56,225 bases of DNA, taken from positions 1 through 56,225 of the forward strand of contig JAYUUO010000036.1 in the NCBI GenBank assembly GCA_043754515.1, given 5' to 3'. The notes beneath the pieces were generated by a model. That model saw only the letters and a program-made list of their open reading frames with translations, was not told where the DNA came from and did not search any database. Origin of the DNA: Armatimonadota bacterium (GTDB taxonomy: Bacteria > Armatimonadota > Armatimonadia > Armatimonadales > Armatimonadaceae). Positions 6,481 to 46,642 of the stretch are shown in pieces. The stretch's first letter is position 1; every line of letters begins with the position of its first letter. The position numbers and the translations under genes are program-made.

Positions 6481-9123
6481 ATGCTAGCCCGCGAACTACG
6501 ACAACAATATCTCCAGTTTTTTGAAGGCAAAGGGGCGTTGCGCCTCCCGTCCGACTCACTCGTTACCGACGATCCGACACTCCTATTCACCGTCGCCGGA
6601 ATGGTGCCGTTCAAAGCCTATTTCGAGGACCGCGCGACGCCCCCCCGGAACTCGCTCGCCACGTCGCAGAAATGTCTACGCACAAACGACATCGAGGACA
6701 TCGGCGACACGTCGCACTGCACCTTCTTCGAGATGCTCGGCAACTTCGCGTTCGGCGACTACTTCAAGACCGAGGCGATTAACTGGGCGTGGGAGTTCCT
6801 TACGGGCGTCCTGAAACTCGACCCGAAGGACTTGCGCGTGACCGTATTCGCGGACGACGACGAGGCGTTCCGGCTGTGGCACGAGGGTTGTGGGTTGCCC
6901 GCCGAACGTATCTCCCGGCTCGGCGAGAAGACGAACTACTGGCCCGCGAACGCGATCAAGACGAAGTCGCAAGGCCCGTGCGGGCCGTGCTCCGAGATAT
7001 TTTTCGACACGAAGCCCGAGGAACCATTCGACGCCGACTGGGATGGCGAAGGCAGCCGCTGGCTCGAAATCTGGAATCTGGTATTCACGCAGTTCACCGG
7101 GCGGGGCGAGGGTGACGCTTACCAACTTGTCCCGCTCCCCAAAAAGAACATAGACACCGGCATGGGCCTCGACCGGACGGCGGCGGCGATCAACCGGCTC
7201 TCCGGCCCGTTCGAGACGGACCTGCTCCGCCCGGTGATCGCGGACCTGGAGAAACTGTCGGGGAAAGTTTACACGTCCACGCCGGACTCGACCATTGACA
7301 TCGCGTTCCGCCGCATCGCCGACCACGTACGCGCGGCCACATTCCTGCTCGCGGACGGCGTAACGCCGGATCGCACCGGGCGCGGGTACGTCCTGCGCCG
7401 CCTGATGCGCCGCGCCATCGTCGCCGGAATCCGAACGCTCGGGTTCGCGGACGAGCCGTTTCTGGACCGCGCCGTGCCTACCGTGGTCGAGGTCATGAAG
7501 GACGCTTACCCCGAACTGGTTGACCGGATGGAGTATATCCTCGGGCAGGTCCGAACCGAGGAGTCGCAGTTCCGGCAGACACTGAAGCGCGGCCTGTCGC
7601 TCCTCGACGAACTGCTGGAGCGCGGCACCCTTTCCGGCGAGGAGGCGTTCGACCTGTATCAGACAAACGGTTTACCGTTCGAGGTGACTAAGGAAGTAGC
7701 GGCGGAACGCGGCATAGCGGTTGACCGCGCGACATACGACTCCGCGCAGACCGAGCATGAACGCGCGTCGGGCAAGGGTAGCAAAGTCACCTGGGTCACC
7801 GGCGACGAGGATCTAAAGGAGATGCTACGCTCCCTGCCGCTGTCGAAGTTCGTCGGTTACACGACTGGCCTGCGCACACCGTCCACCGTGCTTGGCATCA
7901 TCGCGGACGGCAAACCAGTACAAACAATCGCGCCGGGACAGGCGGCGGAGATTATCCTTGATGTGACGCCGTTCTATGCCGAGTCGGGCGGGCAGGTCGG
8001 CGATACAGGCACCCTGGACGAGGCGAACGGGATCATGTTCGAGGTCGCCGACACCCACAAGGCGAACGGGCTGTGGTTCCACCACGGCGTCGCGAAGGGC
8101 GAGATCACGGTCGACACCCCAGTCGTCGCGGGCGTGGACGCGGGCCGCCGCGCCGACATCCAGCGCAACCACACCGCGACGCACTTGCTCCACGAAGCGT
8201 TACGAAGCGAACTCGGCGCGCACGTGCGACAACGCGGCTCGCTGGTCGCCCCCGACCGGCTGCGGTTCGACTTTGCTCACGCCCACTCGCTGACACCGGA
8301 CGAGATAAGAACTGTCGAAAAGCGCGTTAACGAGGCGATACTGAACGCGCTCCCGATCGAAATACAGGAACTCCCGATCAGCGAAGCCCGCGAGCTGGGC
8401 GCGATGATGCTCTTCGGCGAGAAGTACGGCGACGTGGTGCGCGTCGTGTCCATCGGCGGGGATTTTTCCCGCGAGTTCTGCGGCGGTACGCATGTCCCGA
8501 ACGCAGCGACCATCGGCTCATTCCGCATCGTGTCGGAGTCCTCGGCGGCGGCGGGTGTCCGCCGAATCGAGGCGTTGACTGGGCGCGGCGCGGAAAGCCT
8601 GAATCGGGAAAATACCGAGACGCTGAGCACACTCGCCGCGCTCCTGAATACCAGGCCGGACGCCGCGCCCGAAGCAGTCGAGAGATTACAAGCCGAAATT
8701 AAAACGCTCCGCGCCGAACTTGCAAAGCAGAGGCAGACACAGGCTGGGAATCAAGCCGGGGAGTTGATCGCGGGCGCGAAGGCGATCGGCGCGGTAAAGG
8801 CAGTAGTCGCCCAAGCGGAGGGCGTCGAGGACGGTGCCGCGTTGTCGGGACTAGCGGACGACATATTAAACCGCGTCGGCTCCGGTGTGGTAATACTCGC
8901 GGCGGGCGTGGACGGCAAAGCGTTGTTTGTTGTCAAAGCGTCGAAGGACGCCGTGGCGGCGGGCGTACACGCGGGGAACCTAGTTAAGGCGGCGGCGACC
9001 GTGGCAGGCGGCGGTGGCGGCGGGCGTCCCGACTTCGCGCAGGCGGGCGGCAAAGACGCGACAAAAATAGCGGACGCGCTCGCGGCGGCGGAGTCGGTGT
9101 TGGTCGGGGCGGTTGGCGGTTAG
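6481..9123 (+). CDS. alaS: Alanine--tRNA ligase
   Basis: DPTLLFTVAGMVPFK, FFEMLGNF, IDTGMGLDR, NHTATHLLH, EFCGGTHV, GGGGGRPDFAQAGG; start set at MLARELR. Confidence 0.98.
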   Translation: MLARELRQQYLQFFEGKGALRLPSDSLVTDDPTLLFTVAGMVPFKAYFEDRATPPRNSLATSQKCLRTNDIEDIGDTSHCTFFEMLGNFAFGDYFKTEAINWAWEFLTGVLKLDPKDLRVTVFADDDEAFRLWHEGCGLPAERISRLGEKTNYWPANAIKTKSQGPCGPCSEIFFDTKPEEPFDADWDGEGSRWLEIWNLVFTQFTGRGEGDAYQLVPLPKKNIDTGMGLDRTAAAINRLSGPFETDLLRPVIADLEKLSGKVYTSTPDSTIDIAFRRIADHVRAATFLLADGVTPDRTGRGYVLRRLMRRAIVAGIRTLGFADEPFLDRAVPTVVEVMKDAYPELVDRMEYILGQVRTEESQFRQTLKRGLSLLDELLERGTLSGEEAFDLYQTNGLPFEVTKEVAAERGIAVDRATYDSAQTEHERASGKGSKVTWVTGDEDLKEMLRSLPLSKFVGYTTGLRTPSTVLGIIADGKPVQTIAPGQAAEIILDVTPFYAESGGQVGDTGTLDEANGIMFEVADTHKANGLWFHHGVAKGEITVDTPVVAGVDAGRRADIQRNHTATHLLHEALRSELGAHVRQRGSLVAPDRLRFDFAHAHSLTPDEIRTVEKRVNEAILNALPIEIQELPISEARELGAMMLFGEKYGDVVRVVSIGGDFSREFCGGTHVPNAATIGSFRIVSESSAAAGVRRIEALTGRGAESLNRENTETLSTLAALLNTRPDAAPEAVERLQAEIKTLRAELAKQRQTQAGNQAGELIAGAKAIGAVKAVVAQAEGVEDGAALSGLADDILNRVGSGVVILAAGVDGKALFVVKASKDAVAAGVHAGNLVKAAATVAGGGGGGRPDFAQAGGKDATKIADALAAAESVLVGAVGG

Positions 9124-13967: not shown

Positions 13968-14040
13968 TGGAGATAAGGGGGCTCGAACCCCTGACCTCTA
14001 CAATGCGAATGTAGCGCTCTCCCAACTGAGCTATATCCCC
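13968..14040 (-). tRNA. tRNA-Ala (anticodon CGC), CCA not encoded
   Basis: GGGGATATAGCTCAGTTGGGAGAGCGCTACATTCGCATTGTAGAGGTCAGGGGTTCGAGCCCCCTTATCTCCA; G3-U70 alanine identity pair. Confidence 0.95.
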
Positions 14041-39871: not shown

Positions 39872-40252
39872 ATGATCACGTTAAGAAATATCGCCAGGCT
39901 AACGGCGGTCGCCATGACATTGGTTCTCGTGGGTGGCGTTGTCACGCCAAACGCGGCGTACGCGCAGTCGAAGAAAGACAAGGCGCGACAGAAGGACAAG
40001 AACCTTATGCGCAACCTTGGGGTGGGTGCCGGTGCCGCCGCTGTCTACGAGGGTTTGCACGGGCGGACGACCAACGCGGTCGTAATCGGTGCCGGTGCCG
40101 CCCTCGCGGGCAAGAAATACGAGGACTCGCGCAAAGCACAGCGGCGCGAGGGCGGCACTTACAAGGTGTACCGCTATCGAAGCGGAAAGAGAGTCGGCTA
40201 CACGCAGTTCGTGAACAATCGACGCTCGGGATACCATCGAATCGGCGGTTAG
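39872..40252 (+). CDS. Small secreted basic protein with glycine-zipper-like core, paralog 1
   Basis: Signal peptide AYA-Q; DKARQKDKNLMRNLGVGAGAAAVYEG. Confidence 0.75.
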   Translation: MITLRNIARLTAVAMTLVLVGGVVTPNAAYAQSKKDKARQKDKNLMRNLGVGAGAAAVYEGLHGRTTNAVVIGAGAALAGKKYEDSRKAQRREGGTYKVYRYRSGKRVGYTQFVNNRRSGYHRIGG

Positions 40253-40419: not shown

Positions 40420-40875
40420 ATGAAAACACACTCTTTACAAACCGCCGGTAGGCCGGTCTCATTGGCTCTACTAGCGGCTCTCGCGCTCGGTGTAGGTCTA
40501 ATGACACCCGTGAGTGGCCACGCCCAGTCGAACAAGGACCGCGCCCGCCAGAACGACAAGAACCTGATGCGCAACCTGGGATTCGGCCTCGGCGGGGTCG
40601 CGATCTACGAAGGCATTAAAGGAAAAACCACGAACGCGCTGATAGCCGGTGCCGGTGCCGCCTACGCGGGAAAGAAGTACGAAGACGCTCGCAAGGCACA
40701 GGGGCATGGGAGCAACGAGCAACGATACGGCTACCCCCGCCCCCAGTATGACGGGGACGAGGAGACGTACCGGCCCGCCCCCCGCGAGACCTACTGTTCC
40801 CGCCGCGACGGCGGGCGAGACAACGGCGAGCATCGTGGCTGGTCGAAGCGCAAGCACCACCGGGATGACGATTAG
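40420..40875 (+). CDS. Small secreted protein with glycine-zipper-like core, paralog 2
   Basis: Signal peptide GHA-Q; DRARQNDKNLMRNLGFGLGGVAIYEG. Confidence 0.75.
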   Translation: MKTHSLQTAGRPVSLALLAALALGVGLMTPVSGHAQSNKDRARQNDKNLMRNLGFGLGGVAIYEGIKGKTTNALIAGAGAAYAGKKYEDARKAQGHGSNEQRYGYPRPQYDGDEETYRPAPRETYCSRRDGGRDNGEHRGWSKRKHHRDDD

Positions 40876-42981: not shown

Positions 42982-44136
42982 TTACAGCCGTGACACGAAC
43001 CGCTCAATGCGCCGCAACGCCTCTTGCAATTTATCGGCGGCGGTCGCGTAGCAACAACGTATATGTCCCGCCCCCCCCTCGCCGAAGACAGGGCCGGGCA
43101 CGACCAGCACCTTCTCCTCGACCAGCAGACGCTCGGCAAACTCCTCGGCGGACAGGTCCCACCGCTTCACGGACGGGAACGCGTAAAAGGCCCCCCCAGG
43201 CATCGGGCAGTCCAGACCGATCTCGTTCAGCCCCTTCACGAACAGACGGCGGCGGCGGTCATAATCCGCGCACATCTCTTCCGCATCCCTATCGCCACGA
43301 CGCAGGGCTTCCAGGGCACCTATCTGCGCCGTGATGGGGGCGCACAGCATCGTGTACTGGTGAATCTTCATCATCACCTCAATGATCGGAGCAGGGGCGC
43401 ACGCATACCCGATACGCCATCCGGTCATCGCGTATGCTTTGGAGAAACCATTCAACAGAATCGTGCGCTCGTAGGCACCGGGGAGCGAAGCCACGCAGAC
43501 ATGCGGCGCGTCGTAGGAGAGCCTGTCGTAAATCTCATCGGAAATGATGTATAAATCGTTCTGGACGCACACGTCCACGATGGCCTGCAACCCCACCGCG
43601 TCCATCGTCGCCCCCGTCGGGTTCGTCGGATAAGAAAGTAAAATCGCCTTCGTCCGGGGAGTTATCAGCGCGGCGACATCGCCGCTTCGCGTCCGGAATC
43701 CGGTGTCGGCCCGCGTCGGCACCGGCACCGGCACGCCGCCCGCGAACGCGACGCACGGCGCGTACGAGACGTAGCACGGCTCGGGGATTAGCACCTCGTC
43801 ACCGGGGTTGAGCAGGGCGCGGAACGCCGTATCCAGTGCCTCGGAGACGCCGACCGTGACCAGCACTTCCTGGCGCGGGTTCCACTCGACTCCGTACCGC
43901 TCCTTCATCTTCCGGACGATCTCGATGCGCAACTCCAGTAGCCCGTAGTTACTCGTGTACGTCGTCTGTCCCTTTTCGAGCGACCAGATGGCCGCCTCGC
44001 GGACACGCCACGGCGTCACGAAGTCCGGCTCGCCGACGCCTAGCGAGATGACGTCATCCATCTCGGCGACCAGATCGAAAAATCGGCGTATCCCCGACGC
44101 CGGGACCGATATTATTTTTTCACTCAAAGATTTCAT
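42982..44136 (-). CDS. Class I/II PLP aminotransferase, YugH/AlaT-like
   Basis: SGIRRFFDL..DVISLGVGEPDF.TPW, PTNPTG, SDEIY, NGFSKAYAMTGWRIG. Confidence 0.92.
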   Translation of the reverse strand: MKSLSEKIISVPASGIRRFFDLVAEMDDVISLGVGEPDFVTPWRVREAAIWSLEKGQTTYTSNYGLLELRIEIVRKMKERYGVEWNPRQEVLVTVGVSEALDTAFRALLNPGDEVLIPEPCYVSYAPCVAFAGGVPVPVPTRADTGFRTRSGDVAALITPRTKAILLSYPTNPTGATMDAVGLQAIVDVCVQNDLYIISDEIYDRLSYDAPHVCVASLPGAYERTILLNGFSKAYAMTGWRIGYACAPAPIIEVMMKIHQYTMLCAPITAQIGALEALRRGDRDAEEMCADYDRRRRLFVKGLNEIGLDCPMPGGAFYAFPSVKRWDLSAEEFAERLLVEEKVLVVPGPVFGEGGAGHIRCCYATAADKLQEALRRIERFVSRL

Positions 44137-44271: not shown

Positions 44272-44766
44272 CTATGGGGTCACCGCCAACCGGCGATCTT
44301 CTTTCTCGTCGCCCGTGAAAAGCACGCCGTCTTCCTTATACTTCTTGAGCAAGAAATTGGTCTGCGTGCCCTTCACTCCGTCAATCGTCGCGACCCGCTC
44401 GGCGACGAAGTTAGCGACTTCCTGAATCGTATGCCCCTCGACCACGACGCGCAGGTCCTGTGTGCCGGAGACCAGGTACACCGAATGCACCTCCGGGAAG
44501 CGGTATATCCGCTCGGCGATCCGGTCGTAGCCGGAGCCGCGTTCGGGCTGCGCGGACACGTCTATGAACGCGAACACGCGCGGCTCCCCGGCGCGTTCCC
44601 AGTCCACGCGGGCGCGGTAGGAACGGATGATCCCGGTGTCCTCGGCGTCCGCGATCACGGCCTGCACTTCGGGTTCGCCGGTGCCGGTCTGCGCGGCGAT
44701 TGTCGCGGCGGGGGTACGGGCGTCGGCTTCAAGTATGTGTAAAACGGCGTTTTGCAGTGAGTTCAT
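44272..44766 (-). CDS. Lrp/AsnC transcriptional regulator, YugG/AlaR-like
   Basis: ILEADAR HTH; GYDRIAERIYRFPEVHSVYLVSG; T.FLLKKYKEDG; RLAVTP. Confidence 0.92.
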   Translation of the reverse strand: MNSLQNAVLHILEADARTPAATIAAQTGTGEPEVQAVIADAEDTGIIRSYRARVDWERAGEPRVFAFIDVSAQPERGSGYDRIAERIYRFPEVHSVYLVSGTQDLRVVVEGHTIQEVANFVAERVATIDGVKGTQTNFLLKKYKEDGVLFTGDEKEDRRLAVTP

Positions 44767-45239
44767 AAGTTGGGTTCTTCATCCGGCTCGATAGCGACTA
44801 CACCCGACGCCCGCGCGAGGTCGACGAGTTGCGAGCGGTAGCTACGGTATACAGAACGCGGTATTGCGTCAGGGCGCACCAAGCCTGTGATTCCAGCATG
44901 GCCAATTGCCCCCGGTCGGGGGGCGGGTTTACCGTCCGCTTTCATTAGCACATGCCAAACGACATCCAGGGGCGAGACAGCGACGGGATCGGGCACCGGG
45001 CGTAGCGCACGGATGCCGTCCACCGGTAGCCGAGGTGCCATAGTGTGGCGGGGCGAAACAATCGCCCGCGCCTGTGTCGGCATTGTACGACTAGTGGCGA
45101 ACACGGAGAGTGAGCGCAACCCCGAAGCTTCATTGAGCGATGATGGAATGAGCGCGGCGATCAGTGTTTCCCCTACTCCAGGTGGCGTAGCCATGCGTAG
45201 AACGACTTCGCCGGCGGCTAGCGGTTCGGCATGAGTCAT
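44763..45239 (-). CDS. Hypothetical protein, possible ADP-ribosyltransferase-like fold
   Basis: VVLR..LSVF..GHAGITGL pattern; ATGA overlap with the Lrp start. Confidence 0.55.
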   Translation of the reverse strand: MTHAEPLAAGEVVLRMATPPGVGETLIAALIPSSLNEASGLRSLSVFATSRTMPTQARAIVSPRHTMAPRLPVDGIRALRPVPDPVAVSPLDVVWHVLMKADGKPAPRPGAIGHAGITGLVRPDAIPRSVYRSYRSQLVDLARASGVVAIEPDEEPNL

Positions 45240-45295
45240 TCGCGCACACGATCCAATTTCTCCTTGACGCCTTGCGTGACTGGCGTTTCAATATC

Positions 45296-45715
45296 TCAGT
45301 CCTTCTCCCAAACCACGCCGGTGGTTCGATTGCAGTAGAACCATTCGCCATCACCAGAGGCAAACACCTCCAACTCGAGATGATGTTCTCCCCTGTCCCA
45401 AGCGCATGCGACCTGTTGCTCCGCCGCGCCCATGTCCGGTAGCGGTGCGTCCGGCACATCCGCGAGCAGTCGTCGCAGGCAGAGCAGCACGCACCCCGCC
45501 GCACCGGGCGTTGTTCCGCCCTGCGCGACTTCTCGGAACAGGTAATTTTGGTAACGTTCCAAGGGCGGGGGGAACGCGTGACGCGAGAATTCCTCCGCCT
45601 TACTGTAGCGCCCCCACGTCAAGATAATGTAGTCAGTCACTGTTTCGCCGTGCCGTATTGCTTCGGCTTCCAGAGTGGAAAATACATCGTTATCAAGTGT
45701 TAAAGTCGCGGACAT
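45296..45715 (-). CDS. Hypothetical protein with N-terminal RHH/antitoxin-like segment (possibly truncated by a premature TGA)
   Basis: MSATLTLDNDVFSTLEAEAIRHGETV; acidic C-terminal domain AWDRGEHHLELEV; reading frame continues to 45236. Confidence 0.6.
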   Translation of the reverse strand: MSATLTLDNDVFSTLEAEAIRHGETVTDYIILTWGRYSKAEEFSRHAFPPPLERYQNYLFREVAQGGTTPGAAGCVLLCLRRLLADVPDAPLPDMGAAEQQVACAWDRGEHHLELEVFASGDGEWFYCNRTTGVVWEKD

Positions 45716-45751
45716 TCTCGGTTCATACCCTCTTTAATAGTTACAGGACAG

Positions 45752-45792
45752 GAAACAAAACGACCCTCCGCGTTTGTTACACGGAAGGTCGC
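45752..45792 (-). terminator. Intrinsic terminator (attenuator 3:4 hairpin)
   Basis: GCGACCUUCCGUGU-AACAA-ACGCGGAGGGUCGU-UUUGUUUC, 14-bp stem with G-U pairs. Confidence 0.85.
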
Positions 45793-45825
45793 TTTAAAAA
45801 CAGGCCGGAAATCCGTGCGGGAGGG

Positions 45826-45888
45826 CTAAGCGGTAGCGGATGCTATCGCGGCGGCTTGCGTTGCGGATGCCGAAAGGTTGGTTTGCAC
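45826..45888 (-). CDS. Alanine-rich leader peptide MQTNLSASATQAAAIASATA
   Basis: GTG start 9 nt after TATACT; 8 Ala in 20 codons; TAG immediately before the antiterminator/terminator elements. Confidence 0.6.
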   Translation of the reverse strand: MQTNLSASATQAAAIASATA

Positions 45889-45897
45889 TCTGCCGAT

Positions 45898-45927
45898 AGT
45901 ATAACTTGAAGCGAGTGCCTTTGTCAA
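45898..45927 (-). promoter_or_regulatory. Sigma70 promoter of the leader/Lrp/aminotransferase unit
   Basis: Minus strand TTGACA-N18-TATACT. Confidence 0.8.
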
Positions 45928-46024
45928 CTTACGAAAAGTAACTCCGTCAAGCGCGTGCCGTCGTCAGTGCATCCAATCCGGCGGTTCAAGCGAAATCCGT
46001 CACATTTTGGGTACAACGGGAATC

Positions 46025-46642
46025 ATGGAACGAGCCGTGACCGACGACAACGAACTGCCCCGCACACTAACCACGGCCTTGAAAGAGTGGGCCGTAGCGA
46101 TCCGCGCCCTACGCGAGGGCCGCCAGGTCATGCTCCTCCGCAAGGGCGGCATCCGCGAGGCAGAGGGCGAGTTCGTGGTCGAATCGCGCGACGTGTTGCT
46201 GTTCCCGACGTTCGATCATCAGGCCGAACAGGCCGGCACGTTGCAACCGTGCTATGGCGCATGGCGCGAGGACGAGGAGAAGCATCGCCCGAAAGGAGAG
46301 AATGTACGGCTCGACGCATGGGCGCGGATCACTGACATCCTCCTAATACAGCCGGAACGGTTTCCCAAACTATTTACGTTCGGCTCGCAACACATATACG
46401 GGAACGCGTTCCTGAAGTTCCGCTCCGAGAACGAGCCGACTAAGCCATTATACTGCCTGTTTCTGCGCGCGTATAATTTGCCGGAGACGGTGACGTTGCC
46501 TATGGAACCGGATTATTACGGTTGCCGTTCTTGGATTACCCTCGCCAAGGAGCTATCCATCGCGGGGGCGACGCCCGCTTTAACACGTTATACCTATGAG
46601 GAACGTGTCCGCGTGACCAAACGAATACTCACCACCGACTAG
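46025..46642 (+). CDS. DUF1802 family protein
   Basis: ALKEWAVAIRALREGRQVMLLRKGGIRE, LLFPTFDHQ, YYGCRSW. Confidence 0.9.
   Translation: MERAVTDDNELPRTLTTALKEWAVAIRALREGRQVMLLRKGGIREAEGEFVVESRDVLLFPTFDHQAEQAGTLQPCYGAWREDEEKHRPKGENVRLDAWARITDILLIQPERFPKLFTFGSQHIYGNAFLKFRSENEPTKPLYCLFLRAYNLPETVTLPMEPDYYGCRSWITLAKELSIAGATPALTRYTYEERVRVTKRILTTD

Follow-up and report, generated by a model that had tools for sequence, protein, structure and literature searches.

The minus strand of the window (the whole 56,225-nt stretch of Armatimonadota contig JAYUUO010000036.1 that was analysed) carries a short, alanine-rich leader open reading frame (ORF) and an intrinsic terminator upstream of genes for an Lrp-family regulator and an aminotransferase. 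Judged by sequence comparison, the leader element is real and conserved, and it is most likely a ribosome-mediated, alanine-sensing transcription attenuator. An earlier note on this DNA had proposed that stalling at Ala codons causes read-through into an AlaR/AlaT-like operon. This core of the proposal is supported, because the leader is conserved in 10 genomes and orthologous Bacillota operons carry Ala T-boxes, whereas the proposed helix between segments 1 and 2 is not conserved.

Translation of the leader, stalling and the RNA switch, as we infer them, would work as follows, with charged tRNA-Ala as the sensed signal. Transcription would begin immediately before the leader GUG, with a ribosome following the polymerase. 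With alanine plentiful, the ribosome at the stop codon would mask the beginning of segment 2, allowing the terminator to form. With alanine short, the ribosome would stall at the Ala codons, and segment 2 would pair with the 5′ arm of the terminator before the 3′ arm is made. Transcription would then continue by antitermination into two inserted genes, followed by lrp and the AlaT-like aminotransferase gene. An untranslated leader should give read-through rather than super-attenuation, because there is no conserved 1:2 helix.

Promoter, leader and inserted genes

The promoter proposed earlier, TTGACA and TATACT 18 nt apart, was borne out (Table 1) and matches the consensus at 11 of 12 positions. 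Between positions 43000 and 48000 two promoter-like sites occurred, this one included (shuffle expectation 1.6); on the minus strand of that region the leader promoter stood alone, with no second promoter-like site found. The GTG-opened leader also agreed with the earlier description, using all four Ala codons (GCA 3, GCC 2, GCT 2, GCG 1), all within codons 7–20, the last 14. Its start lies 9 nt past the −10 box. As this gap is 6–9 nt in all 10 leaders found, the mRNA that carries the leader probably has no 5′ untranslated region or a very short one. Promoter-like boxes were also seen 6–15 nt before the start codons of lrp in a sister family (L016–L030) and of alaS in the window (6493, plus strand), which suggests that leaderless mRNAs are common across the order. 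The hairpin at the 3′ end of the leader ORF is a possible pause hairpin.

Table 1 Features of the leader and its operon, with positions in the window
Feature	Position	Strand	Remarks
−35 box TTGACA	45922..45927	−	sequence; TTGAC likewise placed in 3/3 congeners
−10 box TATACT	45898..45903	−	sequence; 18 nt from −35 box
Leader ORF	45826..45888	−	20 codons, 8 Ala; GTG start 45888, TAG 45828-45826
Hairpin within leader ORF 3′ end, UAGC:GCUA core	45830..45849	−	core pairs kept in 4/4 genomes of the window's genus
Putative antiterminator strand (segment 2, GCACGGA)	45812..45818	−	pairs with UCCGUGU 45785-45779; starts 8 nt past stop
Intrinsic terminator	45753..45792	−	14-bp stem 45792-45760, −24.1 kcal/mol, then U tract
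960-bp insert	44768..45727	−	absent in G001, G002
Orphan ORF 1, 139 aa	45296..45715	−	singleton cluster; Atlas leads <0.9 only
Orphan ORF 2, 158 aa, stop overlaps lrp start	44763..45239	−	singleton cluster; Atlas score 0.95 with unnamed clusters, recognition under the threshold
Lrp/AsnC-family regulator, AlaR/YugG-like	44272..44766	−	PF01037, 54 bits
Class I aminotransferase, AlaT/YugH-like, probable ATG 44136	42982..44136	−	PF00155; predicted
Divergent DUF1802 gene	46007..46642	+	same neighbour in 3 congeners

The regulator and aminotransferase genes lie downstream on the minus strand, as the earlier note had it, but lrp is not adjacent to the leader, since two orphan ORFs intervene. They lie in an insert bounded by a 7-bp direct repeat (45727-45721 and 44767-44761, minus strand) that contains the lrp start codon, and neither had a Pfam or NCBIfam family above cut-off. 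The insert is probably recent, because two congeners are without it. Contigs from other studies cover pieces of it and bridge the junction of orphan ORF 2 and lrp. Past the terminator, a strong ribosome-binding site opens an 8-codon mini-ORF (45726-45700) that overlaps the start of orphan ORF 1. By eye, the two orphan proteins have the look of a toxin-antitoxin-type cassette, which is a guess. Unrelated inserts between terminator and lrp were found in G003 (a 292-codon gene, L121) and G041 (~430 nt, L111). With 3 of the 10 leaders having an insert there, the site may be an insertion hotspot that places newcomers under the attenuator. Elsewhere in the window, two tandem paralogous small proteins (39872-40252 and 40420-40875, plus strand) have signal-like N-termini and a glycine-zipper-like stretch.

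Alanine codons and predicted competing helices

Alanine makes up 11.9% of the long ORFs in the window's genome; against this background 8 Ala of 19 residues has a binomial P of 9e-4, and 8 Ala in any frame were reached by 0.1% of 2000 dinucleotide shuffles. Genome-wide, 270 pairs of a short ORF and a terminator were present, five of them with at least six Ala within the last 16 codons. Among the 15 entries combining short ORF and terminator with a −10-like box 5–10 nt ahead of the ORF start, the window leader had the top Ala count. In-frame enrichment was found in 10/10 leaders (binomial P 2e-5 to 5e-3), with 0–2 Ala in the other forward frames. Equal Ala counts on the reverse strand were rejected as an artefact, GC being palindromic.

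The caveat raised earlier, that Ala codons abound in GC-rich DNA, does not account for this enrichment. GC bias is excluded as the cause because five of the eight Ala codons in the window leader are GCA or GCT, which form 14% of the genome's Ala codons; codon choice runs opposite to GC bias. GCA and GCT make up 66 of 105 Ala codons over the 10 leaders, versus 8–25% in lrp and the aminotransferase gene of eight loci. The genome has three tRNA-Ala genes (CGC, GGC, UGC), so GCA is decoded by the UGC species alone. The tRNA-Ala(CGC) gene (13968-14040, minus strand) and alaS (6493-9051, plus strand) are on the same contig as the leader.

The 14-bp terminator with its U tract was present as described. 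The fold of the window leader had a z-score of −3.64, with none of 200 shuffles equally stable, and a search of 71 genomes from the order found the terminator arm pattern in three, always at the leader locus of the lrp operon. All 10 leaders had a terminator (−16 to −27 kcal/mol) and a U tract.

For the pairing of segment 2 with the terminator 5′ arm the results were mixed. GCACGGA is there, and its 7-bp core was kept in 4/4 genomes of the window's genus while the spacer diverged, with two one-sided changes in G003 and an extended helix in G001 and G002; the window helix itself was no better than those of shuffled spacers (38/300). In a second genus of the family a 5-bp core right after the stop was kept in 6/6 genomes, with C-G to U-G changes. 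The search for covarying helices gave one two-sided change, in the terminator of the second genus, and none in the antiterminator cores of the 10 leaders. Base pairs were counted on motif anchors, which biases the counts towards the proposed structure, because a MAFFT alignment had misplaced segment 2 in two of its four rows.

When the transcript was folded up to the terminator loop, the antiterminator formed if the region past the stop was free. Compared with shuffled spacers it was significant (P<0.05) in G001 (2/300), G002 (6/300), G003 (0/300), G008 (2/300) and G042 (14/300). It was not significant in the window, the weakest of its genus, or in G018 (24/300), G021 (123/300), G023 (118/300) and G041 (272/300), the last three being at chance level.

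Ribosome footprints range from 5 to 9 nt past the A site. With a 9-nt mask, the energy sequestering the terminator arm dropped at the stop in 4/4 genomes of the window's genus (from −6.2 to −4.0 in the window, from −15.4 to −9.1 in G003) and near the stop in 4/6 of the second genus, in total 8/10 leaders. With a 5-nt mask there was no switch in G000 (the window genome), G002 and G003, and G018 and G041 showed none with either mask. In this model the switch works only if the ribosome covers about 9 nt beyond the stop. The position of segment 2 fits that of the Ala codons in both genera: in the first, Ala codons extend to the last or third-last codon and segment 2 begins at +6 to +9, whereas in the second genus the main Ala run stops several codons short of the stop, where segment 2 begins.

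The protector helix between segments 1 and 2 (AUCCG:CGGAU) had to be given up. It was absent from the predicted fold, had no counterpart in three congeners, and is disrupted in two runs, where strains vary at 45840; the hairpin inside the ORF is kept instead. Of the trp/his/thr attenuator logic that the earlier note invoked, the upstream ORF (uORF) and the terminator are present, the 1:2 helix is not conserved, and the predicted design is 2:3 versus 3:4 only. An Rfam search of the window gave no match at gathering score or at E<=10, and a riboswitch or T-box there was rejected; a likeness to the c-di-GMP-I motif, seen by eye, was likewise dropped. The leaders of seven family loci and L128 matched no T-box or other Rfam family.

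Relatives of the leader and the probable link of the operon to alanine

The nearest named loci to the window operon are from Armatimonadota. Of 32 family genomes 25 have lrp, and we scanned 450 nt upstream of all 25, and up to 3.5 kb for 12, for an Ala-rich ORF starting 6–9 nt past a −10 box and followed by a terminator. The proposed check for Ala-rich uORFs upstream of orthologous operons was positive in 10 of these 25 genomes, comprising 4/4 of the window's genus and 6/6 of the second; these are two kin groups and not 10 independent cases. The leaders have 20, 41, 45 and 20 codons with 7–16 Ala in the window's genus, where each ORF spans from 6–9 nt past the −10 box to 5–8 nt before segment 2, and 24 codons with 9–11 Ala in the second genus.

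No leader was seen in 14 of the 25 genomes, six of them viewed over 450 nt only; in the genus of those six, lrp lies closely behind another gene and the 5′ end of the operon is beyond the scanned 450 nt. In G015 (L128), a 53-codon ORF with 12 Ala (P 0.017, shuffle 0.035) and a terminator were found, with weak statistics and no −10 box by the start, and it was not counted; it is possibly a modified or decaying attenuator. This Ala-rich ORF resembles the leader of the second genus and is followed by two tandem terminators. Four family genomes that have the aminotransferase gene and no adjacent lrp had no visible leader. These aminotransferase orthologues (L280–L283 in G011, G013, G019 and G012) come from three genera of the family.

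Outside the family, no leader was seen at any of 15 sister-family loci, in which promoter-like boxes immediately precede lrp, or upstream of 76 further named loci. A scan of 140 wider loci (80 metagenomic and 60 of 182 phylum matches), many with short upstream DNA and some duplicating family genomes, gave one loose match, 950 nt upstream. Within the window's genome there was no attenuator in the 450 nt upstream of alaS, ilvB, trpE, leuA, a leuA paralogue and a second aminotransferase gene, and a genome-wide search for others gave none that was convincing. In G023, a SAM-I riboswitch (L009, 550-658, minus strand) and a tRNA gene precede the leader by about 0.6 kb. In a single-gene, midpoint-rooted tree of the aminotransferase, a 97/94 clade unites the window's genus with genera without this element and leaves the second genus outside. 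As the two genera are not sisters there, repeated gain and repeated loss would both be compatible with the history.

The operon resembles AlaR (YugG)/AlaT (YugH) of Bacillus subtilis in having an Lrp gene followed by a class I aminotransferase gene, and in sharing the best PDB homologue: the window aminotransferase matched 1DJU best, which is also the homologue given for B. subtilis AlaT in PMC6522883. According to that 2019 review, the AlaT annotation was then without experimental support; a later study reports that deletion of alaT causes alanine auxotrophy (10.1101/562850), and yugG (alaR) is an Lrp gene (PMC2885750). The best NCBIfam model for the window enzyme was PRK07682 (548 bits, 155 ahead of the next), which we take to correspond to YugH. 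This is below the cut-off of 620; three Bacillota orthologues with T-boxes are also below it (572–582 bits). PRK07682 matched in 38 of 61 Bacillota genomes, and among the best 25 loci, 21 of them over the cut-off, an orthologous lrp lies directly upstream of the aminotransferase gene in 25/25, as in the window, with 43–53% identity to the window Lrp. In the two top-scoring PRK07682 loci (L303, L304), the Bacillus sRNA ncr1241 adjoins the aminotransferase gene.

T-boxes (RF00230, gathering score) preceded the Bacillota operon at 5 of 40 loci scanned: L055, L081 and L082 in a set of 20, 12 of which were chosen non-family loci, and L310 and L311 in a further 20. Read by eye and by the usual T-box rules, all five have a GCC specifier and a bulge with UGGU. 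A T-box motif scoring under the cut-off was present at three more loci. Ala T-boxes on alaRT have reportedly been published before. The T-boxes seen here are the strongest independent sign that the operon responds to alanine, the presumed product of its enzyme.

Alternative explanations and known attenuators

In one alternative the leader acts as RNA only: a GC-periodic hairpin would yield the Ala run incidentally, and a ligand or protein, not translation, would control termination. GCN repeats are self-complementary and a hairpin in the ORF end is present in all leaders. In the second genus, moreover, Ala third positions are frozen, with differences at 7 of 99 pairwise sites (lrp: 101 of 209). 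The leader there has 94 non-synonymous and 42 synonymous differences, mostly outside the Ala run. Because of these frozen positions RNA structure appears to contribute, and constraint at the nucleotide level could explain part of the Ala run there. Yet the reading frame, its start and its stop are retained despite indels as large as 75 nt, the Ala-rich stretches of G001 and G002 reach beyond the hairpin, and no Rfam family matches, so we regard RNA-only control as highly unlikely. In an identical 8-residue stretch of the window and G008, six of eight third positions differ, all synonymously, and strain variation at 45829 leaves the encoded Ala unchanged; other strain contigs change Ala7 to Thr (one) and Ser17 to Pro (two). 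We read the leader as doubly constrained, by its codons and its hairpin. Barely credible is a stand-alone small gene with a constitutive terminator, the operon being fed by leak-through or another promoter, or a switch decayed in this genome. The weak window antiterminator and the insert that parts terminator from lrp would suit it. Against it stand the single minus-strand promoter-like site, the poor conservation of peptide length and sequence except for Ala, and segment 2, kept amid a diverging spacer. Positions 45753-45818 had no variant in the covering contigs of two other studies, which also speaks against decay; a run labelled RNA is probably DNA, and the leader is outside its coverage.

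Attenuation by stalling might instead sense several amino acids, Ala with Val or Thr, or any translation stress, as in mycobacterial whiB7. Its Ala-enriched uORF attenuator, as described in PMC10274678, answers many amino acid starvations, alanine among them, and antibiotics. Near the stop, Val and Thr rank directly after Ala in frequency (six Val in G001, six Thr in G002). Ala, however, is the commonest residue in 10/10 leaders while Val and Thr counts vary, the orthologous operon has Ala T-boxes, and the leader is short and directly upstream of the enzyme operon. We therefore consider a sensor of several amino acids unlikely and prefer alanine as the signal.

The earlier note knew of no characterised alanine leader-peptide attenuator, but whiB7 is published, though its action is indirect, by way of a regulator, and many amino acids trigger it. 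Its activator induces the alanine aminotransferase gene aspC in trans (PMC10274678). The Armatimonadota leader would share with whiB7 the Ala-enriched uORF, stall-driven antitermination and feedback on an alanine aminotransferase. Loss of the whiB7 start codon raises read-through, according to the same paper, and the same is predicted here. Unlike whiB7, the leader has 20–45 codons and would act in cis on the enzyme's own operon.

Classical leader-peptide attenuators are trpL, thrL, leuL and pheL of Escherichia coli and hisL of Salmonella. Like these, the Armatimonadota element places a short uORF rich in the product amino acid, and a putative antiterminator competing with an intrinsic terminator, before a putative biosynthetic operon. 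In contrast to the trpL/hisL class, it would read alanine, without a conserved 1:2 helix or an Rfam family, and its start codon is probably at or near the mRNA 5′ end. The classical architecture is summarised in 10.1101/834739, which also describes leaderless polycysteine small ORF attenuators in mycobacteria. These resemble the leader in having the sensor ORF at the mRNA 5′ end and amino-acid-specific stalling, whereas they read cysteine and use a duplex sequestering the Shine-Dalgarno sequence, in place of the terminator/antiterminator pair proposed here. The Bacillota Ala T-box (RF00230) shares with the leader the operon, the inferred tRNA-Ala charging signal and the antitermination output; T-box RNA binds uncharged tRNA directly, while the proposed sensor in Armatimonadota is the translating ribosome.

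Our literature search, with most subscription journals and all supplements outside its scope, gave no report of this leader, of a dedicated cis-acting Ala attenuator or of this lineage. The logic follows the textbook, and a uORF that senses alanine has been published before; alanine is an amino acid seldom reported for this classic type of switch. A fuller account, which we put forward tentatively and with some doubt, is that of a dedicated, cis-acting and near-leaderless Ala attenuator with two competing helices only, which replaced the Ala T-box on this operon and was gained at least twice in one family (the two genera have different RNA elements and are not each other's sister), the rare GCA/GCU codons sharpening the sensing.

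If the attenuator is confirmed, alanine would join those amino acids whose own biosynthetic operon has a dedicated leader-peptide attenuator of the classical kind, and attenuation would be present in Armatimonadota. It would also give a second argument, mechanistically independent of the Ala T-boxes, that the widespread pair of Lrp and PRK07682-like aminotransferase makes alanine outside Bacillus. The L011 aminotransferase is identical to an NCBI protein named from Armatimonas rosea, and the leader is testable because it appears to be present in a cultured, harmless species. With T-box, leader peptide and bare promoter as three regimes on one operon, the system would offer a clean case for regulator swapping.
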